From contig JACRDK010000004.1 of the NCBI GenBank assembly GCA_016218585.1, positions 85,347 through 149,346 of the forward strand: 64,000 bases of DNA. Reading direction: 5' to 3'. Each line of letters begins with the position of its first letter. Position 1 is the first letter of the stretch. Origin of the DNA: Candidatus Doudnabacteria bacterium (GTDB lineage: Bacteria; Patescibacteriota; Doudnabacteria; UBA920). Position numbers and translations under genes: made by a program. The notes under the pieces were generated by a model. That model did not search any database. It was given only the letters and a program-made list of their open reading frames with translations, and was not told where the DNA came from. This document shows positions 2,018 through 62,417 of the stretch, piece after piece.

Positions 2018-3763
2018 CTAGTTTTCCTGTTCGCCAATTTGCTGGCGCCACATTGCATAATACAAACCTTTTTGATCCAGCAAATCCTGATGTCGGCCTG
2101 ACTCGGCAAGTTTGCCTTTCTCCAAAACATATATCCTGTCGGCATGCATAATGGTAGACAATCGGTGAGCAATTAAAACCGTAATTTGTTCCTGGTTTAC
2201 GGAAAGTTGTTTTATAGTTTCTGTAATCTGTAGTTCAGTTAAAGAATCCAGGGCGGAAGTTGCCTCATCAAACACTAATAGTTGAGGATTGCGCAAAAGC
2301 GCTCTGGCAATAGACAGCCTTTGTTTTTCTCCGCCGGAAACTTTTACCCCACCTTCTCCAATTACCGTATCAAGCCCTTGCGACGCTCTCTGCATTAAAG
2401 TTTGCGCCGCTGCCCTGTCCAAAGCTTTAAACAGCTCCTCATCGGAAGCCTCAGCATTGGCAAATTTTAAGTTATCACGGATTGTGCCGGCAAATAGCTG
2501 GGTGTCCTGGGTAACCAAGCCAATTTGGCCTCTTAAACTTTCCAAGTCAGCGCTGGTTAAATCTATATCGTTATAGCTAATTGCTCCTTCGGCCGGACGA
2601 TACAGCCCAACCAACAACTTAACTAATGTCGTCTTGCCGCTGCCGGACGGACCAACAAAAGCCACTGTCTCCCCGCTTGCAGCCTTAAAGCTTACCTTGT
2701 CTAACGCCGGACGATTGGCGGTTAAATGCTTAAAAGATACATTATTAAAACTAATACTCTCCAACTTGCCGATATTTTTCGGATCTTTTGGTTTTGGCTC
2801 TTTTGGCGTACTTAAAATATCTTTAAAATTCTGCAAAGAAGCCTGTGCCTCGCGGTAGGAGTTAACTACATTACCCAGTTCCTGTAAAGGATTAAATAAA
2901 AAGAAGGAATAAATCCATAGAGAGAAAAACTCGCCCAAAGTTAATGCTTTGGTAAAAACTAAATACATCATGGTAAACAGAATAACCGTGCGCAAAAAAT
3001 TAATTACCGTTCCCTGAATAAAGCTTAACGTTCTTAGATATTTTATTTTTTCCAGTTCCAGCCCTAATATGGCTTCGGTAGTATTATTCAGGCGGCTAAT
3101 TTCCGCTCCCGAAAGCCCCATAGATTTCACCAGTTCAATGTTGCGCAGGCTCTCAGTGGTGGACCCAGCCAAGGCGGTTGTTTGGGCAATAATCTTTATT
3201 TGTACAGTTTTAATCTTGCCGCTTAAAAAAGCGGACAAAAAGCCTAAAATTGGCACCATGGCCAAATATACCGCGGCAATTACCCAGCTAACGGAAAAGG
3301 CATAAACTATTACAAATACAAAACCAATCAAGGTAAAAAATAAAACATTTACCGCGTTGGTAATTAAAGTCTGCACATCCAAGCGAACACGCTGCAATTT
3401 TTCCAGGGTCTCCCCGCTTCTCTGGTCTTCAAATACCTGATACGGCATTTCCAAAGAATGGGCTAGCCCATCGGTGTACATTTTTGCGCCAACTCTCTGA
3501 GTTACCGTGTTAACATAATAGTCCTGAAAATTTTTGGCAATGCGGGAAACCAAAGCCGTTCCCATAGACAATAAAAGCAGCCAGCCGACCCCGTGAAAAA
3601 ATTGAGTTCGGCTAAGCTCATTAAACTTGGTGGCGTAATTATCCATTATCAAACGGAAAATATATGGATCAAGCAAAGAAAATATTTGGTTGACCGCAGC
3701 TAAAAAAAGCGCTAACGCTAAAAGTTTCCAGTATTTTTTTACATACTTGGTTAATATAGACAT
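2018..3763 (-). CDS. ABC transporter permease/ATP-binding fusion protein (exporter type, MsbA/LmrA-like)
   Basis: 6-TM N-domain; Walker A GPSGSGKTT, signature LSGGEKQRLSIARAL, Walker B LVFDEATSALD. Confidence 0.85.
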   Translation of the reverse strand: MSILTKYVKKYWKLLALALFLAAVNQIFSLLDPYIFRLIMDNYATKFNELSRTQFFHGVGWLLLLSMGTALVSRIAKNFQDYYVNTVTQRVGAKMYTDGLAHSLEMPYQVFEDQRSGETLEKLQRVRLDVQTLITNAVNVLFFTLIGFVFVIVYAFSVSWVIAAVYLAMVPILGFLSAFLSGKIKTVQIKIIAQTTALAGSTTESLRNIELVKSMGLSGAEISRLNNTTEAILGLELEKIKYLRTLSFIQGTVINFLRTVILFTMMYLVFTKALTLGEFFSLWIYSFFLFNPLQELGNVVNSYREAQASLQNFKDILSTPKEPKPKDPKNIGKLESISFNNVSFKHLTANRPALDKVSFKAASGETVAFVGPSGSGKTTLVKLLVGLYRPAEGAISYNDIDLTSADLESLRGQIGLVTQDTQLFAGTIRDNLKFANAEASDEELFKALDRAAAQTLMQRASQGLDTVIGEGGVKVSGGEKQRLSIARALLRNPQLLVFDEATSALDSLTELQITETIKQLSVNQEQITVLIAHRLSTIMHADRIYVLEKGKLAESGRHQDLLDQKGLYYAMWRQQIGEQEN

Positions 3764-5109: not shown

Positions 5110-5210
5110 ACAAAACTATATTTACTAAATACGAATGAATGCTAATACACTAATACTTTGACCCTGTAGATGATAAAGATTATTAGTATGAATTAGTATT
5201 TAGTAAAGTT

Positions 5211-6425
5211 CTAAGCGCTCGGGAATAATTGCCGCATTACGTCGTCAATAGTTACTACGCCAACCAACTTTTTTTCTTTATCTAATACAGCTGCGGTATA
5301 CAAATTATACTTTGTCATTAACTGGATAATTTTCTCAATTTTATCGCCGGGCTTTAAAAAAGCATACGAAGGGAAACGCTTGGCTAAATCGCCAATTTTT
5401 TCCTGAGATTTTGCCAAAAGCAACCTCCTTAAAGAAACAACGCCAATAAATCTGGACTCTTCATAAGTCACATAGACATAAGGCAAAGACCTCATCCCGT
5501 CGGAAACCTTTCTTATTTCTTCGACAACCTGGGCAATAGTCCACTCAGGCCTTACGGCTAAAAAATCCAGAGTCATCAATCCCCCGGCGGTATTGTCCGG
5601 GTAATTCAATAACTTTTTAACGCTCTGCGCTCTGCTGCCTTTTACCTCGGACAAAAACTGGTTTGCCTCATCCCCCGATAAAGTTTTAACTAAGTCCACA
5701 AATTCGTCGCTGGACATTTGCGACATAATTTTCCCGGCGCGCTCCGGACCCAAATACTTTACCAAAACAGTCTGTAATTTTGGATCGACTTCTTCCAATA
5801 CTTTAGCTGCTTCAGTGGAATCCAGGGAAGCCAAAAGGCTGCTGCCAAATTTTACATCCAAGTCTTCCACAATATTAGCTAAGTCTGCCGGATGCAAATG
5901 GCTCAAATCTTCCGCAACGGTGTTCAATTCCAGCCCCTTTTTACTGTCTACCAGAGTTGCCTGGCGCCAGTCTATTAAAGACACAGAAAAAGGCTTGCCG
6001 AAAATTGAGCCGGCGAGCCCTAAGCGTCTTAATATTCCTTTAAAGCTGGAGTCTATTCCCAGCACGCAAACTTTATTTTCAAAATTTCCAATTCTCAAAT
6101 CATTCACCCGGACAACCCTGGTTCCGGCCACATCCACAATCTGCTTATCCAATACCTGTTTTTTTAAATAAACAAACTGAACTGCGGGCAATTCATTTTG
6201 CGCCACCTTATTAAACAAATTTTTCAGCGAGATTTCGCTGCTATTAAAATTTGCCACATATTCATACGGGACAAACTTTCTGCCCTGATGGGTTTTAATT
6301 ACTAAAAACTCCAGCGGGGCAAAGGAGTCTGCCTTTGGCGCAATTAGAATGTCTTCCAATTTGCCAACTGAAACATCGGAGCTGTCGGTAATGGTGTTAT
6401 TTAACAATTCGCTGATATACGGCAT
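5211..6425 (-). CDS. Soluble MgtE-N-terminal-domain plus tandem CBS domain protein (no channel domain)
   Basis: AGGLMT motif of MgtE_N, C-terminal CBS pair (VGVVTIDDVMRQL), no TM segments. Confidence 0.6.
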   Translation of the reverse strand: MPYISELLNNTITDSSDVSVGKLEDILIAPKADSFAPLEFLVIKTHQGRKFVPYEYVANFNSSEISLKNLFNKVAQNELPAVQFVYLKKQVLDKQIVDVAGTRVVRVNDLRIGNFENKVCVLGIDSSFKGILRRLGLAGSIFGKPFSVSLIDWRQATLVDSKKGLELNTVAEDLSHLHPADLANIVEDLDVKFGSSLLASLDSTEAAKVLEEVDPKLQTVLVKYLGPERAGKIMSQMSSDEFVDLVKTLSGDEANQFLSEVKGSRAQSVKKLLNYPDNTAGGLMTLDFLAVRPEWTIAQVVEEIRKVSDGMRSLPYVYVTYEESRFIGVVSLRRLLLAKSQEKIGDLAKRFPSYAFLKPGDKIEKIIQLMTKYNLYTAAVLDKEKKLVGVVTIDDVMRQLFPSA

Positions 6426-28970: not shown

Positions 28971-29021
28971 CTACCATCCCTGCCGGCAGGCAGGTACTCA
29001 CTACTCACTACTCACAACCAT

Positions 29022-29525: not shown

Positions 29526-29589
29526 AGTTGTTAGTTTTTACTTGTATACCCACATCCTTGTATCCTTGTATCCTTAAATACTTACCCCC

Positions 29590-31738: not shown

Positions 31739-31900
31739 AGCAATTCTTAGTAAAACGTTTTTATAAAAAATAAAGCTTGTAAATTTCTAATTACTAATTA
31801 TTCTAATTTCTAAACAAACCCTAATTCCTAATATCCAATAAAATAAAGGCGAATTAGACATTTAATCATTGGAGATTATTTAGATTAATTAGAAATTAGG

Positions 31901-32932
31901 TTAATTAACATTAATTGTCCCTCTATACATTCCCATACTGCACATAAAGGCAATTTGAGTTGGTTTGCTTGGGCTATGAAAAGTTACCTCGCCGCTGCTG
32001 CCCAGCGGAACAACTTTTTGTACCCCCAATGAAGGGATGGTGAAATCCTGAACGCAGCTGGAACCGCCTTGATTCACTAATTTTATTTTTATATCTGAAT
32101 CTTTTGGCACGGAAAAACTGTTTGGGCTATAACCGGAAGCGCCTATGGTAAGAGTAATGTTTGAATTAGTTTCCCCAACCGCGGTTTGGTTGCCGCTTGG
32201 GCAATAGGCAATGGCGCAAAAAGCTCTGCTTCCAATATCCGTAAGGCTAATTGGCTTGCCGGTTAGCGCCAGCGCGTTATTTAAATTAAACAAAGACAAC
32301 AATATTATGGCAAAAGCGGCGGCGCGAAAAAACTTTTTATGCCAAAAGTCTCCCAAACGAGTGGCAAAATATCCGAGCAAAAAAAAGATCGGGCTGGTTC
32401 CCAAAACAAACGCATACATTATCCCCGCTCCCCTAATAGCGCTGCCGCTGGCTATTGCCAAAGCCATCATGGCCTGGGTTGTACCGCACGGAATGAACAC
32501 CGTAAAAGCCCCCAAAATTGCCGGCGCAAAAATATCTTTACTCTTTGACTGTTTTCTAACCAACCGAGTTAAAAACTTTGGCGGCTGAATTATGAAATAG
32601 CGGAAAAACGGGTGCACGTCTAACAAAGCCATAGCGGTGCCAAACATAAAAATCACCACGGCAAATTGCATAACCAATTTTACAGTGAGCGATAAAGCGA
32701 ACAACGAACCAAACCAGCCAAGAAGCAAGCCTAAAATTGTATAAGCCACAAGCTTCGCCAGCAAAAACCACAAAATTGGCGCAGCTGTTCCTTTTTGCGC
32801 TTCACCCTTTAGCCGCTCCTCTTCCCGCTGAGCAATGGTTGAAGCAAGCAGCCCGCCCTGTACGGCAAGGCAAGTAAGCCCTCCGGTTAGCAGGCCTGTT
32901 AAAAATATTGCGATAAAGGACGTATTTTGCAT
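31901..32932 (-). CDS. Membrane protein: DsbD_2/CcdA-like transmembrane domain fused to a C-terminal cupredoxin-like domain
   Basis: N-terminal FLTGLLTGGLTCLAVQGG; 6-7 TM; C-terminal beta domain with CxxxC...C...M (CAIAYCP, SSCVQDF, FMCSMGMY). Confidence 0.5.
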   Translation of the reverse strand: MQNTSFIAIFLTGLLTGGLTCLAVQGGLLASTIAQREEERLKGEAQKGTAAPILWFLLAKLVAYTILGLLLGWFGSLFALSLTVKLVMQFAVVIFMFGTAMALLDVHPFFRYFIIQPPKFLTRLVRKQSKSKDIFAPAILGAFTVFIPCGTTQAMMALAIASGSAIRGAGIMYAFVLGTSPIFFLLGYFATRLGDFWHKKFFRAAAFAIILLSLFNLNNALALTGKPISLTDIGSRAFCAIAYCPSGNQTAVGETNSNITLTIGASGYSPNSFSVPKDSDIKIKLVNQGGSSCVQDFTIPSLGVQKVVPLGSSGEVTFHSPSKPTQIAFMCSMGMYRGTINVN

Positions 32933-35796: not shown

Positions 35797-36063
35797 TTAT
35801 TTGTTTTTTAGCTTGTAAATTTTTACCATTTCTTTTACGGCCTTCTGGCTTTGGCCGTGGGTAAACTGATGTGGGACGTGTTCGGTTAAGTGATTTTCCA
35901 ACAAATCCGCATTAAAGCTCTGCAAGGACTTCTCCACAGCCAGGCTCTGCGTTATTATGTCCACACAATATTTGTCGGCTTCTACCATTTTTTCTATGCC
36001 CACCACCTGCCCGGCAATGCGGTGCAAATGGCTTATTAACTTCTTTTTATACTTTTCTTGCAT
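35797..36063 (-). CDS. csoR: CsoR family copper-sensing repressor
   Basis: HRIAGQVVGIEKMVEADKYCVDIITQ... with the conserved Cys/His copper ligands. Confidence 0.85.
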   Translation of the reverse strand: MQEKYKKKLISHLHRIAGQVVGIEKMVEADKYCVDIITQSLAVEKSLQSFNADLLENHLTEHVPHQFTHGQSQKAVKEMVKIYKLKNK

Positions 36064-36102
36064 AAATCTTATATCTTAATTCATAAATCTTAAATTTACT
36101 AT

Positions 36103-38015: not shown

Positions 38016-38069
38016 AAAGAATCGGTATTATCCGTATCATTAGTATTAATCCCTATATCGGCATCATAT

Positions 38070-39200
38070 ATGAAAATTGGAATTGTCTGATATCCTTCCG
38101 TTGGTGGCAGCGGCATTGTGGCAACAAACTTAGGGCTAGAACTGGCGCTCCTGGGGCATCAGGTTCATTTTATTTCTTACGAATCGCCTTTTCGTTTGGA
38201 GAAAAAACATAAAAATATTTTTTTCCACAAAGTTCAAATTAACGAATACAGCCTGTTTAAATATCCGGACTACACCCTGCCGCTGGCCGTTGCCATTGAA
38301 GAAGTGCAAAAAAGATACGGGCTGGACGTAGTGCATGTGCATTACGCCGTGCCGCACGCCACCGCGGCGCTACTGGCTAAAAGAATTATGAGGCAAAATG
38401 GAATTCAACCGCCTAAAATAATTACCACTTTGCATGGAACCGACATTACCCTGCTGGCCAAAGATCCTGCTCTTTTTGAAATAATTAAATATTCGGTTGA
38501 AAGAAGCAACGGCGTAACTGCGGTATCACAAAATTTAAAAAATGATACAATAAAATTTTTAAAAACCGAAAAAGATATTGAGGTTATTTACAATTTTTAT
38601 TCTCCTCCGGCGCCAAAAAAAACCCACAACGCCATGCGCCGAGAACTTAAAATAAAAGACAGCGATGTTTTGGCTATTCATTTGTCTAATGTTCGTCCGG
38701 TAAAAAGAATTCCTGATTTGTTGAAAGTGGCGGCAAAAATGAAAACACAAAAAAACTTTAAACTGTTAATTTTAAGCGGCGGCGATTTTAAACCGTTTAA
38801 ACCGCTAGTTAAAAAACTTAAACTTGGCAAACAACTTATTGTTAAAGAAAATGTTAAAGATATTGAAAACTATTTAAATGCTGCCGACTTAGGGCTTTAC
38901 ACATCGGAAACAGAAAGTTTTGGCATGGGTATTTTGGAAACAATGAGTTATGAAAATCCCATTGTCAGCACTAATGTTGGCGGCGTGCCGGAAGTAATGG
39001 AAGAAGGAAAAAGCGGATTTTTGCTGGCGCTGGGCGATGTTTCCGGAATGGCAAACAAGGTAAAACTTTTGGTGAATAATGAAAATTTAAGAAAACAAAT
39101 GGGACAACACGCCAAAAAAATCGCCTGCGAAAAATTCTGCTCCAAAGTAGTCGTCCCCCAGTATTTGGAATACTACAAAAAAATAATAGAAGAAAAGTAG
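38070..39200 (+). CDS. GT4 glycosyltransferase, BshA-like (N-acetyl-alpha-D-glucosaminyl L-malate synthase family), interrupted by an in-frame TGA at 38088-38090; the ORF track starts at GTG 38118
   Basis: Own translation from ATG 38070: [34 protein letters not shown] matches the BshA N-terminus [22 protein letters not shown] with TGA at the conserved Cys; C-terminal GT4 motifs (E..G....E....G.P.V). Confidence 0.7.
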
Positions 39201-40392: not shown

Positions 40393-41295
40393 TTATTTTT
40401 TTATTGCGTGGCCGCCAAACTGCTTGCGCATAAGCGCCACAATTTTGTTGGAAAATTTATTTTGATTGGCCGGATCTTCCGACTCGCTGCGGACTTTTAA
40501 GCTGTCTTCTATTACCCGAACATCCACGCCCAATTCGTGGCCGGCGTTAACTGTCCATTCCCCTTCGCCGCTAGCTTTTATATAGCCTTTGGTTCCGGCA
40601 ATATCTTCCCCGTCAAAAATATTATAAACCAAATCTATGAGCCAGCTGCGCACTACGCTGCCCTGCTGGTAAACTTTAGTAACCTGCTTCAAATCCAAAT
40701 TAAAATCGCTGGCTTGCATTACCGCATAGCCTTCGCCAATGGCTTCCATCATTCCGTATTCAATGCCATTATGCACCATTTTTACAAAATGTCCGGCTCC
40801 GTTTTTCCCCATAAGCCCGTAATTTTCCCCGGAAGATAAAACTTTAAAAATAGGTTCTACCACGTGCCATTGTTCTTTTGGTCCGCCAACCATAAGCGCA
40901 AAGCCGTTCTCTTCGCCCCAAACGCCCCCGCTGGTGCCGCAGTCGTAAAATACCACGCCTTTGGCACTTAGCTCCGCGGCTCTCTTTATAGATTCTTTAT
41001 ATAAGCTGTTACCGCCGTCTATAACAATGTCCCCCGCGCGCAAGTGCGGCCCGATTTGCTTTTCAATAAATTCAGCGACTATTTCATGGGGCAACATTAT
41101 CCAAAAAATCCTGGGGCTTTGCGCCATGGCGCCAACAAGCTCGTCAACTTTTTCAAAAGTTTTAACTCCGGCTTTTGCGGCTTCCTCGCGCGGCTCCGGC
41201 GATCGATTCCAGGCCAATACCTCAAAATTATTTTTTTGTAATCTACGGGCAATTTGTATACCCATTTTTCCTAAACCAAAAATTGCAATTTTCAT
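40393..41295 (-). CDS. gnd: 6-phosphogluconate dehydrogenase, short (~300 aa, YqeC/GntZ-type) form
   Basis: MKIAIFGLGKMGIQIARRL Rossmann motif; 6PGD C-terminal domain. Confidence 0.8.
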   Translation of the reverse strand: MKIAIFGLGKMGIQIARRLQKNNFEVLAWNRSPEPREEAAKAGVKTFEKVDELVGAMAQSPRIFWIMLPHEIVAEFIEKQIGPHLRAGDIVIDGGNSLYKESIKRAAELSAKGVVFYDCGTSGGVWGEENGFALMVGGPKEQWHVVEPIFKVLSSGENYGLMGKNGAGHFVKMVHNGIEYGMMEAIGEGYAVMQASDFNLDLKQVTKVYQQGSVVRSWLIDLVYNIFDGEDIAGTKGYIKASGEGEWTVNAGHELGVDVRVIEDSLKVRSESEDPANQNKFSNKIVALMRKQFGGHAIKK

Positions 41296-41304
41296 AAATG
41301 TATA

Positions 41305-41314
41305 GACCGCGGAT
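41305..41314. repeat. Left inverted repeat (GACCGCGGAT) flanking the GxxExxY gene; CGCGGAT occurs twice on this flank
   Basis: Perfect reverse complement of ATCCGCGGTC at 41775-41784; ATCCGCG occurs 3 times on the right flank. Confidence 0.55.
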
Positions 41315-41331
41315 GCGCTGATAAACGCAGA

Positions 41332-41733
41332 TTACGCGGATTTTGTTTTTTGATTAATTATTCGCTTTATTAAAACACTTTTTCTAGTAAATATTGCTAG
41401 TAATCCTAATTCCAAACCGTTTGTTTTTAAATAAGTCATTACTTGATCAAAATATTTTTTGTGGAATTCCTCCGCAACCTTCAACTCAACAACTATGTTA
41501 ATTTTTTCTTCTTTAAATTTAACTAAAAAATCAATAAAGAACTTGGAAATTATTTTATCATCATATTTTAAATTGCAGTACAACTCTCTATCAAAAACCA
41601 AACCTAATTTTTCCAATTCACTCACAAACCCACGCTGATATTCTTTTTCCCGATAACCATAACCGAGCCTGTTATAAACATTATATAACGCTCCGATAAT
41701 CATTTTGGTTTGGTTCTGATATAAAAGTTGCAT
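41332..41733 (-). CDS. GxxExxY family protein (PD-(D/E)xK-fold, TIGR04256-like)
   Basis: IIGALYNVYNRLGYGYREKEYQRGFVSELEKLGL...ADFLV...IVVELK. Confidence 0.8.
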   Translation of the reverse strand: MQLLYQNQTKMIIGALYNVYNRLGYGYREKEYQRGFVSELEKLGLVFDRELYCNLKYDDKIISKFFIDFLVKFKEEKINIVVELKVAEEFHKKYFDQVMTYLKTNGLELGLLAIFTRKSVLIKRIINQKTKSA

Positions 41734-41753
41734 ATTTGCAGTTTTTATCCGCG

Positions 41754-42545
41754 CTATCCTGCCTGCATCCGCGTATCCGCGGTCTTTCTGACCTCAATAC
41801 ACATAAACAGCGGAATTTCCTTGCGGGCTTTGTCTTCCGCCAATTTTCTCGCGCCCTTGTCGCTGGTTTTATGGGAAATCCATTCTTCCAAGCGGCTTAC
41901 TACAAGTCCCGATTTATAAAAAGCTTTAAAATAAACCTGCAGCGGATGGTGAAAAGAATAAGTGAATTTTTTATTCCTCATTTCTTTTACTCCTTGGGTC
42001 ATATCCACGGCCTGGGTAATTTCCGACATATAGCCGTCTATTCTGCGGTACTGAACTTTTTGCTTTTCGTCATAATCCCAATTCGAAGCTCCGGGGACGC
42101 GAAAGGTAGGATGATTTAAAACCAGCACCGCCCTCCCCCCGGGTTTTAGCACCCGGGACATTTCGCCAATGGCCGCCGGCAAATTTTTCATATTTTGCAA
42201 AGCCAAGATGCAAATAGCTGCATCGAAGCGGTTATCAGCAATGCCGTTTAATTTCTCCGCCGACAAAACCAAATAACTTTCGTTCTTGCCGGATTGTGTT
42301 TTTGCCAAAGAAATTAATTCAGCGCCAATATCCACCCCCAAAACTTTAGCTCCAGCCTTTGCCAGTTCGCGCGAAAAATAACCTTGGCCGCAGCCAATAT
42401 CAATTATGTTTTCGCCAGGACTTATATTCAGCAGCCTTAGCAAATTTGGCTTTATTACTTTTTCCTGATAGGTATCTTCCCCTTCTTCTAGTAATTGGTT
42501 ATACCATCCGGCTACTTTACCCCAGGAAGTATTTGAATTGACCAT
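41754..42545 (-). CDS. Class I SAM-dependent methyltransferase (Methyltransf_11-like)
   Basis: IIDIGCGQGYFSRELAKAGAKVLGVDI motif I; LKPGGRAVLV. Confidence 0.8.
   Translation of the reverse strand: MVNSNTSWGKVAGWYNQLLEEGEDTYQEKVIKPNLLRLLNISPGENIIDIGCGQGYFSRELAKAGAKVLGVDIGAELISLAKTQSGKNESYLVLSAEKLNGIADNRFDAAICILALQNMKNLPAAIGEMSRVLKPGGRAVLVLNHPTFRVPGASNWDYDEKQKVQYRRIDGYMSEITQAVDMTQGVKEMRNKKFTYSFHHPLQVYFKAFYKSGLVVSRLEEWISHKTSDKGARKLAEDKARKEIPLFMCIEVRKTADTRMQAG
41775..41784. repeat. Right inverted repeat (ATCCGCGGTC) flanking the GxxExxY gene
   Basis: See left repeat; overlaps the last codons of the downstream methyltransferase ORF. Confidence 0.55.
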
Positions 42546-42681
42546 AATTTAAAAATAAATAAAATTGTATAAATGATATAATTGCCCAAAATTGCGCAAG
42601 ATTGTCCAGAATTGACCAAAAATTAAGTTGCAGAGGTTTAATTTTGTGCAATCTTATTTAATTCTGGGCAATTTTGGGCAA

Positions 42682-44160
42682 TTACTTTGTCCGCCACTCT
42701 CTTAAATCTTTTTTTATAAATTCATCAGCTTCTTTTGGTCCCGCGCTTTTTTGCTTATAGCTAAATACCGGCAAGTTTTTAAACTCAGGATTTTCCGTAA
42801 TGCTGTCTATAAATTTCCAGGAAGATTCTATTTCATCGCTGCGAATAAACAAGCGCTGGTCGCCTTCTATAAAGTCCAACAGCAACCGCTCATACGCCCC
42901 GGGCAGTTCGGTCATAAATGCCTGCTTGTAGCCAAAGCCGTAGTCGCCTTGGTGAATATCTACGCCAAAACCGGGAACTTTGTTGTTGATTTGCAAATGT
43001 ACCGATTCGTCCGGTTGAATGCGAAAAGTTAAAACATTCGCCGTGCAGTTGCGAAAAATACAGCGCGCCGGTTCTTTAAAATGCACCGTAACTTCCGCAA
43101 CTTTTTTATGCAGGGCTTTTCCAGTGCGCAAATAAAACGGCACACCCTGCCAGCGCGGCGTATTAATAAAAACTTTTAGCGCGGCAAAAGTTTCTGTTTG
43201 ACTGTCGGCCTTAACTTCTTTTTTGTATCCCGCATACTGCCCTTTAATAACAGACTGCCTTAACTCCCCTGCTGGCAGCTGCAAAGCTTTTAAAATTTTT
43301 AGCTTCTCGTTGCGAATATCTTCGGTGGTTAAATTATATGGCTCGTTCATGGTAATTAAAGACAGCATTTGCAAAATATGGTTTTGCACAAAATCTTTAA
43401 TCGCTCCGGTCTGGTCGTAATATTCAGCGCGCTTGGCTGTAGTGTCATTCTCCAAAACGCTAATTTCCACATGGTCAATATTTTTGTTATTCCAAAGCGG
43501 CTCAAAAATGCCGTTAGCAAAGCGGACCACCATTAAATTTTGCACTGTTTCCTTGCCTAAATAATGGTCTATGCGGTAAATTTGTTCTTCTTCAAAAAAC
43601 TTCTTTAAAAGCTTATTCAAAGCACTGGCTGACTTATAATTAAAACCAAACGGCTTTTCCACCAAAACTCGAACTTTCCTCTCATGGGCTTTGCAGGACA
43701 TAAGCAGGCCGGAATTTTTTAAAATGTGCGCGATGCCGGAAAAATACTGCGGGCTGGTTGCAAAGTAATACAAGCGATTATAGCAAACGTGCTTGTTTGG
43801 CTGGTCGTGGTCGGATAAAAGCTTTGCCAAACCGGTAAAAGAAGCGACGTCATCAAAATTTCCCTGATAATAAGTTAAGCGCTTTAAAAAAGACTGTTTA
43901 ACCTTTGTCGGCAGTTTTTTTAGCACAGTTGATTTTTTTAAAACAAAATCAAAATAAGATTTTGCGTTTAACTCTTTACGGCCAACGCAAACCAGCCTAA
44001 AACTCTTAGGCAGCATCCCATGCTCTTCCATGCGCAACAAAGCCGGCAATAAATAATCGGCCGAAAGGTCTCCGGTCGCGCCAAAAATTGTTAAAATTGT
44101 CGGCGCTATTTGTTTGCCCGACAAACGTTTTTGAGTATCTTCTACTAAGCTTTTTTTCAT
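42682..44160 (-). CDS. zwf: Glucose-6-phosphate 1-dehydrogenase
   Basis: GATGDLSADYLLPAL NADP site, EKPFG, RIDHYLGKE active-site motif. Confidence 0.9.
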   Translation of the reverse strand: MKKSLVEDTQKRLSGKQIAPTILTIFGATGDLSADYLLPALLRMEEHGMLPKSFRLVCVGRKELNAKSYFDFVLKKSTVLKKLPTKVKQSFLKRLTYYQGNFDDVASFTGLAKLLSDHDQPNKHVCYNRLYYFATSPQYFSGIAHILKNSGLLMSCKAHERKVRVLVEKPFGFNYKSASALNKLLKKFFEEEQIYRIDHYLGKETVQNLMVVRFANGIFEPLWNNKNIDHVEISVLENDTTAKRAEYYDQTGAIKDFVQNHILQMLSLITMNEPYNLTTEDIRNEKLKILKALQLPAGELRQSVIKGQYAGYKKEVKADSQTETFAALKVFINTPRWQGVPFYLRTGKALHKKVAEVTVHFKEPARCIFRNCTANVLTFRIQPDESVHLQINNKVPGFGVDIHQGDYGFGYKQAFMTELPGAYERLLLDFIEGDQRLFIRSDEIESSWKFIDSITENPEFKNLPVFSYKQKSAGPKEADEFIKKDLREWRTK

Positions 44161-46867: not shown

Positions 46868-46946
46868 GCTAAGACTAGAATTAAGAATCTTGAATCATGA
46901 ATTATGTTTTGCTTCTATATTCCTAACTCATGATTCTATTTTTAAA

Positions 46947-49021: not shown

Positions 49022-49217
49022 AAATATATTTAATTATCTCTCCGTTAAATTATAGCAAATAATTGACAAAAAGGCACTATTTATGCTATATTTTATACAT
49101 CTGCCCTAGAGGTTTTTGGGCAATTTTTATTTGATAAATTAGATTTAAGATTGGCGATTTAAGATTAAAGTCTTGTCCCTTCTATAATCTGTTAACTTTA
49201 ATCCATAATCTAATATT

Positions 49218-56247: not shown

Positions 56248-56342
56248 AATTTTTTTCTCCAGATTAAATATAACAGGAATATTTAAAAAAATGAAGCTCT
56301 GCTAGCATCCTATATCCTAGATACTAAATTCTAAATGCTATT

Positions 56343-57729: not shown

Positions 57730-59508
57730 CTATTCTTTGCTTACCCTGACAATTTCTTCAATGGTGGTAATCCCTTTTAGGGCTTTTATAAAACCATCTT
57801 CCCACATAAGCACCATACCTTCTTTTTCTCCCTGCTCCTGAATTTCCTGGGCGCTTTTGTGCGCCATGATCATTTGCGCCACGGTATGGGTAACTTCTAA
57901 AATTTCATGCAAGCCCATTCGGCCTTTATAACCGGTATGGCCGCATTTGTCGCAGCCTTGGCCTTTATAAAACTTTAAATCTTTTAGGGTTTTAGTTTTT
58001 GCCGGAACCTGGCCTTCGCGAATTAAAATTGGCAAAAGCTTATCCATATGAAATTGCTTTGAGAGCGAGTCAATCACCGCATCATCAATTTTCATTTCCG
58101 CTTGGCAGTCTTTACAAATAACGCGCACCAAACGCTGAGCCAATACGGCGTTGACTGTTGAAGCTATTAAATAAGGTTCAACGCCAATATCCAACAAGCG
58201 AGGAAGAGCGGCGGCCGAGCTGTTTGTGTGCAGCGTGCTAAACACTATATGTCCGGTCATGGCCGCGTGAACCGCTTCTTCAGCGGTTTCCCGATCGCGA
58301 ATTTCACCAATCATAATAATGTTTGGGTCTTGGCGCAACAAAGCCCTTAAACCGATGTCAAAAGTTAAACCAATTTTAGGATTAACCTGCATCTGGTTAG
58401 CTCCGACAATGCGATATTCTACCGGATCTTCAATGGTAGAAATGTTTACCGACTTGGTATTTAACATAGACAAAACAGTATACAAAGTGGTGGATTTTCC
58501 GCTTCCGGTAGGGCCGGTGACCAACAACATGCCGTGCGGTTTTTTTATGTTCCGGCTAATGGTATCGAGCGAAGCTTGCTCAAAACCCAATTCTTCCAAA
58601 GTCATGGCTTTAGCAGATTCGTCCAACAAACGTATAACCACCTTTTCTCCGTCAAAAATAGGTATGGTGGAAACGCGCAAAGAAAACTTATAACCGTCTT
58701 TTTCAATTTTAAAGCGGCCATCCTGAGGCAAGCGATGTTCGTCAATTTTCAAATTTGAAAGTACTTTAATGCGCGCCACGATTGCCGCCTGGATTACTTT
58801 AGGCAGCGTCATTACATCGTGCAATACACCGTCAATGCGATAGCGAACCACCACTGAACTTTCCTGCGGTTCAATGTGAATATCTGAAGCTTTTTCAAAA
58901 ACAGCATACTCAAGCAATGTGTCTACCACGCGAATCACGGGAATTTCTTCCGCCATTTTTTTCAACGAATCGTCAGCGCTGCTCTCCCCTTCCGGAGAAG
59001 AAACAAGCGGCTTGCTTTCCGGGGTAAACAAATGTTTGATTTCTTTTTCCAAAGAAGAATGATACTTGGAAAGGCCAAAATCCAAGCTGGTTTTCCCAAT
59101 CAAAAAAGTTTTTATATTTAGTCCGGTTTTCTTTTGAATAAACTCTTTTGTCTGTATGTCTTCCGGGTCTGTCATGGCCAAAGACAAATCGTCCTTGGTT
59201 TTGGCAAAACTAATTACCTGATGCCTATGTGCAATTGGCTCTGGGACCAAATTAAGCACGTCCTGGGCAATTTGCTGGGTAGTTAAATCCAATACAGGCA
59301 CGCCTAACAGGGCGGACTTAATTTGTAAAAGTTTGGCTTCATTAAGAACTTTTTTTTCTACAAGAAAATCTTCCCAAGGCGTCGGCACCTTAAGCTGCAT
59401 TCTTTCTTTTTCCAGTGTTTCTATTTTATCGGCGCTTAAAACTTTGTTTTCTTTTAAGGCCAAATTTAACTGCTGCTTATCCATAAATGCGCGTTTAGAA
59501 AGCCACAA
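57730..59508 (-). CDS. pilB: Type IV pilus assembly ATPase PilB (GspE family)
   Basis: Walker A GPTGSGKSTTLY, TIEDPVEY, tetracysteine CKDC...CDKCGHTGYKGR. Confidence 0.9.
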   Translation of the reverse strand: MWLSKRAFMDKQQLNLALKENKVLSADKIETLEKERMQLKVPTPWEDFLVEKKVLNEAKLLQIKSALLGVPVLDLTTQQIAQDVLNLVPEPIAHRHQVISFAKTKDDLSLAMTDPEDIQTKEFIQKKTGLNIKTFLIGKTSLDFGLSKYHSSLEKEIKHLFTPESKPLVSSPEGESSADDSLKKMAEEIPVIRVVDTLLEYAVFEKASDIHIEPQESSVVVRYRIDGVLHDVMTLPKVIQAAIVARIKVLSNLKIDEHRLPQDGRFKIEKDGYKFSLRVSTIPIFDGEKVVIRLLDESAKAMTLEELGFEQASLDTISRNIKKPHGMLLVTGPTGSGKSTTLYTVLSMLNTKSVNISTIEDPVEYRIVGANQMQVNPKIGLTFDIGLRALLRQDPNIIMIGEIRDRETAEEAVHAAMTGHIVFSTLHTNSSAAALPRLLDIGVEPYLIASTVNAVLAQRLVRVICKDCQAEMKIDDAVIDSLSKQFHMDKLLPILIREGQVPAKTKTLKDLKFYKGQGCDKCGHTGYKGRMGLHEILEVTHTVAQMIMAHKSAQEIQEQGEKEGMVLMWEDGFIKALKGITTIEEIVRVSKE

Positions 59509-59703
59509 AATGCTCTAAAAATTAGATTCTGCGGATTTTTGTAGATAAAAAATTTATTTCTGCAATATTTTGTTTCATTTCTTCTAACTAGACTAAGATA
59601 TTATACCACAAAAGTTCTGAGCAACCAAATTTTGTCAGGGAAAAGGCCATTGCAACTAAAATTTCCAACAATTAACCGCGATTTGATAAATCAAATCGCG
59701 GTT

Positions 59704-59800
59704 TTCTATCTTTCTATCTTTCTATCTTTCTATCTTTCTATCTTTCTATCTTTCTATCTTTCTATCTTTCTATCTTTCTATCTTTCTATCTTTCTATCTT
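59704..59800. repeat. Perfect microsatellite (TTCTATCT)x~12
   Basis: About 97 bp of uninterrupted 8-bp tandem repeat between the sugar transferase stop and the pilB upstream region; preceded by perfect palindrome ACCGCGATTTGA-TAAA-TCAAATCGCGGT (59674-59701). Confidence 0.9.
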
Positions 59801-61102
59801 TCATCGTCCTTGCCAGGTAAAAATATAATAAACTGTTTTTAAAATTATTTCCAAATCAAACAAAAAGCTTCGATGCTTTATATAATATAAATCGTACTGA
59901 AGTTTTAACTTGGTTTCTTCCACGCTGCCGGCATATATGTTTAACTGGGCCCAACCGGTGAGTCCCGGCTTAACCAAATGCCGTTCGTCATAAAAAGGAA
60001 TTTTTTGTTTTAATTCTTCCACAATGTGCGGCTGTTCCGGGCGAGGACCAACCAAACTCATAGTGCCTAGCAACAAATTTATAAACTGGGGCCATTCGTC
60101 AATCCGGCTTTTGCGCAAAAACTTCCCCACGCCGGTAATTCTTGGATCATTAACCGAAGTCCAGGTATTAGTAGCTCCCCCGCTCATGGTGCGGTATTTA
60201 TAAACTTTAAAAATTTCCCCTTTCTTGCCAATGCGTTCCTGGATAAACAGCACGGGTCCGCGGCTGGACAGCTTAATTAACAAAGCACAAAAAGGAAAGC
60301 TAATGGCAAAACCCAAAAAACCTACCAGTCCGAAAATCAAATCAACGAGTCTTTTTATTAAATTATAAAATCTCTTTTCCTGATAGTTAATGTTTTCCAG
60401 GAACCAAATTTCATTAATTTGAGAAAGATAAACCCGCCGGAGCAATTGTTCGTAAAAATTCTTATGGTTATAAAATTTTACTCCCAGCGTCCTAAGCTTA
60501 TATAGATTTTCCGAAACTTGAGGATTGGCATGCAAATTATCCGGCAAAATAATATTGGCATTTTTTTCAAATGAACTGAGTTCCAGATTCTTTTCATTTA
60601 CATGGCCCAAAACTTTATAACCCAAATAACCCTGATGCTTAATTTCTGTCTCCAATTCAACCAGCTCGTTGTTAAATGAAAACAAATAAACCCCTTCTAT
60701 AAAACGGCTTTTTAAAAAATATTTAACAAGCAGGTGCCAAACTAAAATTAAAACAAAAGCTACCCCGACATTTATTAACAAAAATCTCCTGGGGGTTAAA
60801 ATTAAGTTCGGCTGCAGGTAAAAATACATTACGGCAATTAAAAAATTAATTACCATAGCCGAGATTAAATTAAAAAACAAACTGGAATAACGGCGGAAGG
60901 AAGGAGTCTCAAATAAACCATGAATAAAAAACACTAAAAGCCAAAAAGCATAAATTATGGTGAACGTATTAAAATACGCCGGGTTTTGCTGGACATCGGA
61001 AATTCTCCCAAAACGCAACAAGGCCGAAATGTATAGGCCGGCATAAAGCAAAATTACATCCGGCACCAGAACTAACCAAAAAATAATAGTTTTTTTATTC
61101 AC
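59801..61102 (-). CDS. Polyprenyl-phosphate sugar phosphotransferase (WbaP/bacterial sugar transferase family)
   Basis: C-terminal LVGPRPEQPHIVEE and GLTGWAQLN motifs; N-terminal TM bundle. Confidence 0.85.
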   Translation of the reverse strand: MNKKTIIFWLVLVPDVILLYAGLYISALLRFGRISDVQQNPAYFNTFTIIYAFWLLVFFIHGLFETPSFRRYSSLFFNLISAMVINFLIAVMYFYLQPNLILTPRRFLLINVGVAFVLILVWHLLVKYFLKSRFIEGVYLFSFNNELVELETEIKHQGYLGYKVLGHVNEKNLELSSFEKNANIILPDNLHANPQVSENLYKLRTLGVKFYNHKNFYEQLLRRVYLSQINEIWFLENINYQEKRFYNLIKRLVDLIFGLVGFLGFAISFPFCALLIKLSSRGPVLFIQERIGKKGEIFKVYKYRTMSGGATNTWTSVNDPRITGVGKFLRKSRIDEWPQFINLLLGTMSLVGPRPEQPHIVEELKQKIPFYDERHLVKPGLTGWAQLNIYAGSVEETKLKLQYDLYYIKHRSFLFDLEIILKTVYYIFTWQGR

Positions 61103-61661: not shown

Positions 61662-62417
61662 TTAATTAAATAAAACCCTTATTTCTAATATGGCCTTAGC
61701 CAGCCAGTAGCCCGGATAGCTGGAACGATTATGGGCAATAAGCCTAGCTTGCTTATTTAAAAAAGCCTTAAACCTGGCTTTATTATAATTTGGAAGGCGG
61801 TATAACGTAAAGGCCTCTTGAAAATTATGCATATCCCCCAATTTGCCCATTCTCAGCCATAGGTCGTAATCTTCGGCAAAGTCATCTTCGTCTTTTACAA
61901 AGCCGCCCGCCTCAATAGCCGCCTCTCTGCGAAACATGACAGTGGAAGTAAAAAAGTTATTCCTCAACAACATTGTCCGTCTAATATTTTTGTCTTCCTG
62001 TGGCCTAATTCTTAATTTATAATTCCTAATTCCTAATTTTACTTTTATTCCCCCGCCGCACAGAACCGCTTCTTTATGGCTATCTAAATACGCAACCTGT
62101 TTTTTTAACTTATCTTTATCAATCCACTCATCATCATCGTCCAAATATGCGACATATTCACCTGTCGATGCCAATAAAGCTTCCTGCCTGCTGGCAGTAA
62201 TTCCTATTGATTTCGCATGTGTGATAATTTTTAAATTTTTAAATTTTTCTGCTTTTAAATTCTCCAATATTTCTTTTGTGTTGTCTGTGCTGCCGTCGTC
62301 AACCACGACTATTTCGTAGTCTTTAAAGCTTTGTTGTTCCACGCTCAAAATCGCCTGCCAAAGCTCGGCAGAGCGATTTTTTGTCAAAATGTTTATAGAA
62401 ATTTTTGCGCTGCTCAT
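61662..62417 (-). CDS. Family 2 glycosyltransferase
   Basis: [20 protein letters not shown] (DxD). Confidence 0.8.

Follow-up and report, generated by a model that had tools for sequence, protein, structure and literature searches.

A small gene of the GxxExxY family lies between inverted repeats in a 64-kb stretch of the Candidatus Doudnabacteria contig JACRDK010000004.1 (hereafter the window, to which coordinates refer unless a related contig is named). The locus raises the question of whether gene and repeats are simply neighbours or together constitute an element that moves, as the initial annotation had proposed. Comparison with homologous loci gives good support to the second view: the gene and its two repeat arms (41304-41785, minus strand, 482 bp) form one portable cassette, because the same unit sits between unrelated genes in other bacteria. 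Furthermore, this comparison shows that the cassette entered the stop-to-start junction between a methyltransferase (MTase) gene and gnd in an ancestor shared with a related contig, L002, and that it replaced the last codons of the MTase.

The repeat arms and their recurrence at other loci

On the minus strand, the cassette is composed of a 5′ arm (41734-41785), the GxxExxY/PDDEXK_3 open reading frame (ORF) of 133 amino acids (41332-41733), and a 3′ arm (41304-41345). Its boundaries were placed at the outermost conserved termini, AGACC...GGTCT, which are common to the cassettes found elsewhere, and an empty site in another related contig (L017) agrees with this placement. The arms are mirror images of around 35 to 40 nt each, ending in AGACC and GGTCT. 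The 5′ arm reads AGACC, CGCGGAT (41781-41775), A, CGCGGAT (41773-41767), a degenerate GCAGGAT (41762-41756), AG, CGCGGAT (41753-41747) and 13 nt before the ATG; it holds the final nine codons of the MTase gene with their TAG stop (41754-41756). The 3′ arm reads AAATCCGCG-TA-ATCTGCG-TTT-ATCAGCG-C-ATCCGCG-GTCT, so that four heptamers follow each other at start-to-start distances of 9, 10 and 8 nt, and it overlaps the last three codons of the ORF (K-S-A) and its stop.

The 10-bp inverted repeat from which the initial annotation started is exact, with GACCGCGGAT at 41305-41314 on the plus strand and its reverse complement ATCCGCGGTC at 41775-41784. The positions of CGCGGAT twice on the left flank (41308 and 41335) and of its complement three times on the right flank (41747, 41767 and 41775) were likewise confirmed, and degenerate heptamers were found on the left flank at 41316 (CGCTGAT) and 41326 (CGCAGAT). 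Ungapped extension lengthens the inverted repeat to 27 nt with 81% complementarity (41304-41330/41759-41785). Although real, the 10-bp repeat is weak evidence of a cassette when taken alone: 63 perfect 10-nt inverted pairs spaced by 300 to 600 nt occur in the window, and such a pair is thus commonplace. The total of CGCGGAT in the window is also at chance level (6 versus 5.3 expected). The signal that departs from chance is the clustering of the heptamers, since five of the six lie within 480 nt, while 300 dinucleotide-preserving shuffles never exceeded three per 500 nt. Other long inverted pairs (14265/14894, 25899/26344, 48007/48420) lie inside large genes or across gene boundaries and were set aside as chance. 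A tblastn search of the window returned no second GxxExxY copy, and the 64 kb contain no CGCGGAT hairpins lacking an ORF.

Whether the repeats recur elsewhere had been left as a question by the initial annotation. The genome scan for GxxExxY homologues gave 11 loci, and altogether 16 homologous cassettes, with protein identities of 42 to 100%, were found in at least 11 different operon junctions. Homologues 42 to 88% identical were mapped on their own contigs, where the junctions are unrelated. In L005, the homologue follows T2SS-F and precedes pilM, and in L100, L102, L107 and L108 it lies between the two RNase T genes of a def-fmt cluster. Elsewhere it precedes a thrS-like gene (L004, L095), glmS (L097, L099), thyA (L103) or wecG (L110), or separates bshB-like from bshA-like genes (L104). 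In each cassette, an upstream array of C(G/A)C(N)GAT heptamers opens with (G)ACC and a downstream inverted array closes with GGT(C/A). The geometry is fixed in all 16, with four heptamers per arm; their starts are 8, 10 and 9 nt apart in the 5′ arm, and the 3′ arm has these distances in reverse order (9-10-8). With four same-sense sites of 7 bp at fixed spacing, each end is reminiscent of the protein-binding repeats in the subterminal regions of transposons. The heptamer itself varies between cassettes (CGCGGAT, CGCAGAT, CACAGAT, CACTGAT, CACAAAT, CACGGAT); the two arms carry an identical variant in eight cassettes and differ by one base in the other eight. Throughout 488 kb of fetched DNA, mostly from the Candidate Phyla Radiation (CPR)/Patescibacteria, arrays of at least three copies were found solely at GxxExxY genes or their remnants. 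The same termini and arrays as in the window thus bound GxxExxY homologues at no fewer than 11 unrelated loci of other genomes.

The placement of the cassettes relative to the host genes is precise. In 10 of the 11 distinct loci, the 5′ arm contains or adjoins the end of a host ORF of the same orientation, with junctions such as TAA/CC, TGA/CC and TAG/ACC and sometimes an ATGA overlap, and a co-oriented host ORF begins 2 to 10 nt past the 3′ arm in all 10 loci that could be scored. The strongest distant case is found in a contig of 61% GC (L238), where a homologue only 34% identical lies between rplI and a pyrG-like gene and overlaps the rplI stop through ATGA. Its arms comprise three CGCGGAT at the 5′ end and ATCCGCG-cg-ATCCGCG-ccgcaacg-ATCCGCGGTA at the 3′ end, the next ATG following 9 nt on. 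The architecture spans phyla, from a 40%-GC Patescibacteria genome to the 61%-GC contig.

Insertion at the MTase-gnd junction

The order of the genes on the minus strand of the window is zwf (glucose-6-phosphate dehydrogenase, 42682-44160), the MTase gene (class I S-adenosylmethionine methyltransferase, Methyltransf_11, 41754-42545), GxxExxY, and a gnd-like gene (6-phosphogluconate dehydrogenase, 40393-41295) whose ATG is 8 nt past the cassette end. The first of these opens a conserved zwf-MTase-gnd operon. The element had been described initially as splitting gnd and zwf; in fact it parts the MTase gene from gnd, and the order zwf-MTase-gnd is conserved without the cassette.

Eighty relatives of the MTase were fetched, three of which keep the zwf-MTase-gnd synteny. 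The homologues from the 80 loci align with the window protein only up to residue ~254. The native tail has the form FMC[IL]EL[KQ]KI[KN]x followed by the stop, while the window protein continues from FMCIEVRK into TADTRMQAG and a stop codon, all read from the 5′ arm. The overlap of the right repeat with the last MTase codons, noticed from the start, is therefore matched by a consequence that had been put forward as a possibility: the C terminus was remodelled by the insertion, since nine cassette-encoded residues have taken the place of the native tail. In L017, the MTase stop is located 4 nt ahead of the gnd ATG, with neither a GxxExxY gene nor repeats, and this represents an empty site. In L002, which encodes a GxxExxY protein 87% identical, the zwf-MTase-gnd operon carries the cassette with the same arms. 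Occupied (window, L002) and empty (L017) alleles are found at the same junction among relatives, and these orthologous loci gave no instance of the same arrangement lacking the repeats.

At two junctions where other contigs carry a cassette, T2SF-pilM (56248-56342) and bshB-bshA-like (38016-38069), the window has none. Its bshB-bshA-like junction contains a one-sided array of five units of ~9 nt (AATCGGTATT ATCCGTATC ATTAGTATT AATCCCTAT ATCGGCATC), which may be the footprint of a solo arm, as L104 has a cassette at that junction. Immediately downstream, the bshA-like glycosyltransferase gene (38070-39200; MKIGIV, stop, YPSVGGSG) has an in-frame TGA at codon 7 (38088-38090), where the L104 orthologue has Cys; this could reflect a sequencing error, a pseudogene or recoding.

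Other inserts were observed in the same operon. The MTase-gnd gap is a hot spot for small inserts: an unrelated ORF of 103 or 113 amino acids, with no Pfam match, occupies it in L014 (3900-4220) and L015 (3784-4125). The zwf-MTase gap of the window is filled by a 106-nt hairpin lacking an ORF (42579-42684, z = -5.8), which begins at the zwf stop codon and has arms of 48 nt made of four to five tandem units of ~10 nt (ATTGCCCAAA/TGGGCAATTx), with a loop of 10 nt between them. The hairpin is conserved in L002, and L014 keeps the left-arm units only. In L015, a DUF559 gene (2232-3000, Vsr-like PD-(D/E)xK, E 2e-35) stands between zwf and the MTase gene of the orthologous operon, flanked by G/C-rich palindromic motifs (TCTCCCTCCCC...GGGGAGGGA; CTCCCCCCAAAGGGGGAG), and appears to be a small-nuclease cassette of a second kind in this operon.

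The GxxExxY protein, its transcript and the decay of cassettes

The 133-residue product matches TIGR04256 (88.8 bits, E 3e-25, cut-off 35) and PF13366 (86.2 bits, E 3e-24, cut-off 22), and the AlphaFold model predicts a compact PD-(D/E)xK fold with a predicted local distance difference test score of 92.5. Profiles and model thus both bear out the family and fold assigned initially. Across 31 homologues, no variation was seen in the catalytic residues D68, E83 and K85 or in E29 of the GxxExxY motif. Foldseek matches of the model comprise Cas4, the Hjc and RecU resolvases and EndA/tRNA-splicing endonuclease, none of them close, and the PDB contains no sequence relative. The protein, a putative nuclease, has thus retained its catalytic D/E/K residues. 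A profile search of the GxxExxY/PF13366 family gave 12,677 clusters at 50% identity, and terminal extensions of distant members resemble translated arrays (e.g., PRDPRRNDPR before the stop). Two-domain GxxExxY proteins of 250 to 275 amino acids are present in the representative library (P0059-P0062, P0085) and are either read-through tandem cassettes or true fusions. Searches with PADLOC, Rfam (41000-42900) and PHROGs provided nothing useful for the cassette, with no match at all from PADLOC and Rfam, and no GxxExxY homologue was found in the phage collection.

The GxxExxY protein is under purifying selection, as judged from the coding sequences. Between the window and L002, the ratio of nonsynonymous to synonymous substitution rates (dN/dS) is 0.088 for GxxExxY and 0.09 to 0.11 for zwf, MTase and gnd. 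The arms are constrained as well. In three cassette pairs, the identity of the 3′ arm is 45/48 (window versus L002), 48/48 and 44/48, compared to third-codon-position identities of 65%, 63% and 58%; in the 5′ arm, the heptamers are retained and the spacers drift. Because the 3′ arm is better conserved than synonymous sites and the 5′ heptamers are kept, the constraint bears on the sequence of the arms, beyond mere pairing.

The cassette is most likely expressed by read-through, since it is co-oriented with the host operon and the promoter and terminator scan of the gene strand detected nothing above shuffle level and no terminator-like T-run. Folding of the minus-strand RNA (41290-41800) predicted a closing stem of ~35 bp formed by both arms, with a minimum free energy of -128 kcal/mol (z = -5.6 versus shuffles).

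Several copies are degenerate. L005 contains, at 5150-5300 and 2 kb from its intact cassette, an internally deleted mini-copy in which the 5′ arm is intact, the ORF is reduced to its RRIIK tail and the 3′ arm has decayed. In L102, a solo 5′ arm is fused onto the end of a host gene, and the ORF is interrupted or truncated in 3 of the 16 cassettes (L096, L099, L100). Read from these sequences, the pseudogenes, the mini-copy and the solo arm would be signs of the life cycle of a selfish element.

Hairpins with the same termini as the cassettes but without an ORF were found in L140, L114 and L235. The three hairpins of L140, an IMG/VR contig, follow the scheme TAACCGCGGAT-nn-CGCGGAT-nn-CGCTGAT, loop, ATCCGTG-nn-ATCCGCG-nn-ATCCGCGGTTA, and one of them directly adjoins the upstream stop codon. 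In Gemmatirosa megaplasmids, hairpins of three CGCGGAT, a loop and three ATCCGCG lie just 3′ of a GxxExxY gene (L114) or stand alone (L235). Plasmid homologues from other groups show a single CACGGAT/ATCCGTG pair (Treponema), GGATT and AATCC arrays (Persicobacter) or ATCNGTG units on either side of the gene (Fusobacteria). Searching viral contigs for CGCGGAT-N1-3-CGCGGAT gave mostly chance matches in high-GC coding sequence; real arrays among these matches were restricted to L140, L157 and L179, none beside a GxxExxY gene. A further element lacking an ORF, 160 bp in length, directly follows a P-type ATPase gene in L014 (1015-1174). It has a perfect terminal inverted repeat of 23 nt, beginning with TAGACC and ending with GGTCTA, the outer hexamer of several GxxExxY cassettes.

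Iterated short units were also observed in other spacers of the window and seem to characterise the spacers of this genome in general. Intergenic hairpins of such units are located at 5121-5207 (TACTAAA-, z -3.6), 31775-31925 (CTAAT/ATTAG-, z -1.8) and 46874-46945 (GAAT/ATTC-type, z -2.7). One-sided tandem arrays of 7- to 9-nt units, mostly in intergenic spacers, are found at 56307-56340, 49141-49170, 62004-62038, 36063-36095, 28995-29015 and 29554-29575, and their units often contain GAT or ATC (ATCCTAA, AGATTTA, CCTAATT, TAAATCT, TACTCAC, ATCCTTGT). Finally, a perfect (TTTCTATC) x 12.5 microsatellite (59703-59802) separates two genes of the minus strand (57730-59508 and 59801-61102), and this spacer could be prone to slippage and phase-variable.

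Proposed mode of spread, alternatives and related systems

On balance, we judge it probable that the unit is a selfish nuclease cassette, resembling both the intervening sequences (IVSs) of 23S rRNA and the REPIN/RAYT systems (hairpins of repetitive extragenic palindromic [REP] doublets and REP-associated tyrosine transposases), the chemistry of its mobility being what we infer. Its own nuclease would recognise the heptamer arrays at cassette ends or in ORF-less hairpins of the same heptamers, and the resulting DNA break would let host repair copy the cassette into the new site. Host repair would have to complete the insertion because PD-(D/E)xK enzymes are DNA hydrolases with no strand-joining activity. 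At the RNA level, the arms of the read-through transcript may pair into the ~35-bp stem, as in the stems of 23S rRNA IVSs; RNase III could excise the insert at this stem, or the stem could otherwise keep the insert harmless to the flanking genes. A broader proposal, which we hold to be possible but doubtful, is that a class of mobile elements spanning several phyla has gone unrecognised and that the GxxExxY/PF13366 proteins serve as its nucleases. The gene would be carried in the loop of a hairpin of four plus four heptamers and would spread by cutting ORF-less hairpins or junctions with the same heptamers, followed by repair copying with the arms as homology. If true, this class would be a hydrolytic-nuclease counterpart of REPIN/RAYT, and it might explain ORF-bearing rRNA IVSs and similar DUF559 cassettes.

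Several observations weigh against a selfish cassette of this kind. Nuclease activity, binding specificity and transposition are deduced from sequences and a structure model. The arm duplex is more stable as sense than as antisense RNA in only 7 of the 16 cassettes (a test based on G-U asymmetry); since the sense duplex is not the more stable one, a role at the RNA level receives no specific support over one at the DNA level. The cassettes of the window and L002 look vertically inherited: the synonymous divergence is 0.94 for GxxExxY and 1.0 for the neighbouring MTase, which implies joint inheritance of cassette and operon since the divergence of the window from L002. The window holds a single copy. 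TA stands on both flanks of the L005 cassette and not of the window copy, and L017 is too diverged to fix the junction, so that no target-site duplication can be defined from this comparison. Look-ups of identical GxxExxY, gnd and MTase proteins returned the source contig only and no strain-level empty allele. Lastly, the distant layouts differ, with the Gemmatirosa gene beside a complete hairpin and the Fusobacteria plasmid carrying units of the same orientation on both sides.

Vertical-looking inheritance, together with a dN/dS of 0.09 that equals those of the housekeeping neighbours, would also fit a domesticated and essentially immobile partnership of nuclease and hairpin, like that of single-copy RAYTs with REPINs, in which the gene benefits the host or maintains the hairpins and the arms serve chiefly as structural signals, in RNA or DNA, where the genes of an operon meet (e.g., in processing, stability or translational coupling). 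The gene is indeed single-copy in the window, the upstream stop abuts the 5′ end (with ATGA overlaps) and the downstream ATG follows within 2 to 10 nt of the 3′ end, and RAYTs likewise occur as single copies between inverted REPs and are inherited vertically (PMC3337134). However, the cassette must have moved repeatedly to account for the 11 or more insertion loci among close homologues and for the orthologous sites that are empty, the existence of pseudogenised and deleted copies speaks against a function that every host requires, and the window lacks a population of ORF-less CGCGGAT hairpins; we regard domestication as plausible but rather unlikely. Movement could also be brought about in trans, the arms being a miniature inverted-repeat transposable element (MITE)-like unit mobilised by an unrelated transposase (IS630-type with TA targets, or Y1/RAYT), with GxxExxY as passive cargo of the loop. 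The ORF-less hairpins with the same termini agree with this, as do the flanks TA/GACC...GGTC/TA of the L005 cassette, which are shared by the 160-bp L014 element with its 23-bp terminal inverted repeat. So does a Y1 transposase between perfect inverted repeats in the related CPR contig L045 (266-998; IS200-like, PF01797, E 3e-10, RAYT/IS200-type, with a perfect 22-nt inverted repeat, AATGGGGACATGACCCATTAAT). Arrays and gene nevertheless co-occur strictly from 34 to 100% protein identity and across phyla, unlike random cargo, the heptamer variant follows the gene clade, no candidate transposase adjoins any cassette, and most copies have no TA flanks. Passive transport, though plausible, therefore appears distinctly improbable.

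That no mobile element is involved at all is, in our estimate, extremely improbable. A 10-nt inverted pair is commonplace and the nuclease gene does adjoin a methyltransferase gene, as would be expected from a palindromic terminator, a chance repeat or a restriction-modification pair; yet conservation of the arms extends to unrelated loci and other phyla, the heptamer clustering was never reached in shuffles, the gene strand has no terminator-like T-run or promoter in the scan, and PADLOC found no match. The restriction-modification pair was rejected because the MTase is of the small-molecule type, matching only such families (Methyltransf_11, BioC/UbiE-like), and is conserved in 80 homologous loci, none with a GxxExxY gene. 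On the sequences compared here, terminator, chance repeat and restriction-modification pair are excluded.

A selfish nuclease cassette would give the GxxExxY proteins, which are abundant, often multi-copy and functionally blank, a testable role, and it supplies a defined candidate substrate, four CGCGGAT at 8-10-9 spacing. Annotated termini of family members and of their neighbours may be translated repeat (MTADTQI at the start, NQKSA or TADTRMQAG before the stop). The locus also indicates that selfish inserts are tolerated in streamlined CPR genomes, precisely where one operon gene stops and the next starts. In the searchable literature, we found only passing mentions of the GxxExxY family and no description of such cassettes.

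Among known systems, the ORF-bearing 23S rRNA IVSs of Leptospira and Coxiella are similar in size (~430 to 480 nt) and in having a small ORF inside terminal inverted repeats that form a stem of ~28 to 35 bp, predicted in our case; they too lie within a host transcript and are sporadically distributed, then vertically inherited. In Coxiella, RNase III cuts the IVS, which measures 428 to 444 nt and has a stem of 28 bp (PMC4990558). The cassette differs in occupying a protein-coding operon junction instead of helix 9, 25 or 45 of 23S rRNA, in its arms of four iterated heptamers, and in carrying a PD-(D/E)xK nuclease (PF13366) instead of a four-helix-bundle S23p protein; RNase III excision is here proposed by analogy. 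No PF05635 four-helix-bundle gene was identified in the fetched DNA, which was only partly scanned with Pfam. As in REPIN/RAYT, a small nuclease-type gene is enclosed by a short motif in inverted orientation, doublets of that motif lacking an ORF form hairpins elsewhere, the motif variant differs by gene clade, and the gene is inherited vertically, mostly as a single copy (PMC3337134, PMC3116915). RAYT, however, is a HUH/Y1 transposase (PF01797) that cuts and rejoins single-stranded DNA, whereas GxxExxY (PF13366) belongs to the hydrolytic PD-(D/E)xK enzymes; the window lacks a large hairpin population, and the GxxExxY gene itself changes locus.

The MITE-like context suggested by the initial annotation stands as far as terminal inverted repeats and portability are concerned. 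Like MITEs and the Correia elements, cassettes insert between genes, give rise to internally deleted miniatures and are most likely co-transcribed into hairpins, and the Correia hairpins of Neisseria bind or are cut by RNase III (PMC2649163, PMC10969869). Unlike MITEs and their autonomous partners, the cassette lacks a recognised transposase, of the DDE or any other type, and a target-site duplication could not be demonstrated; the cassette carries a conserved 133-residue ORF, is single-copy in 64 kb, and is distinguished by four heptamers at fixed spacing. Free-standing homing endonuclease genes provide a further parallel, as small nuclease genes between conserved housekeeping genes with presence/absence polymorphism and purifying selection, but they have no conserved terminal inverted repeats, in contrast to the cassette ends that are more conserved than synonymous sites. 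The cassette is thus akin to known kinds of elements and not categorically new, and it links ORF-bearing rRNA IVSs, REPIN-like hairpins and free-standing homing nucleases, which are usually treated apart.

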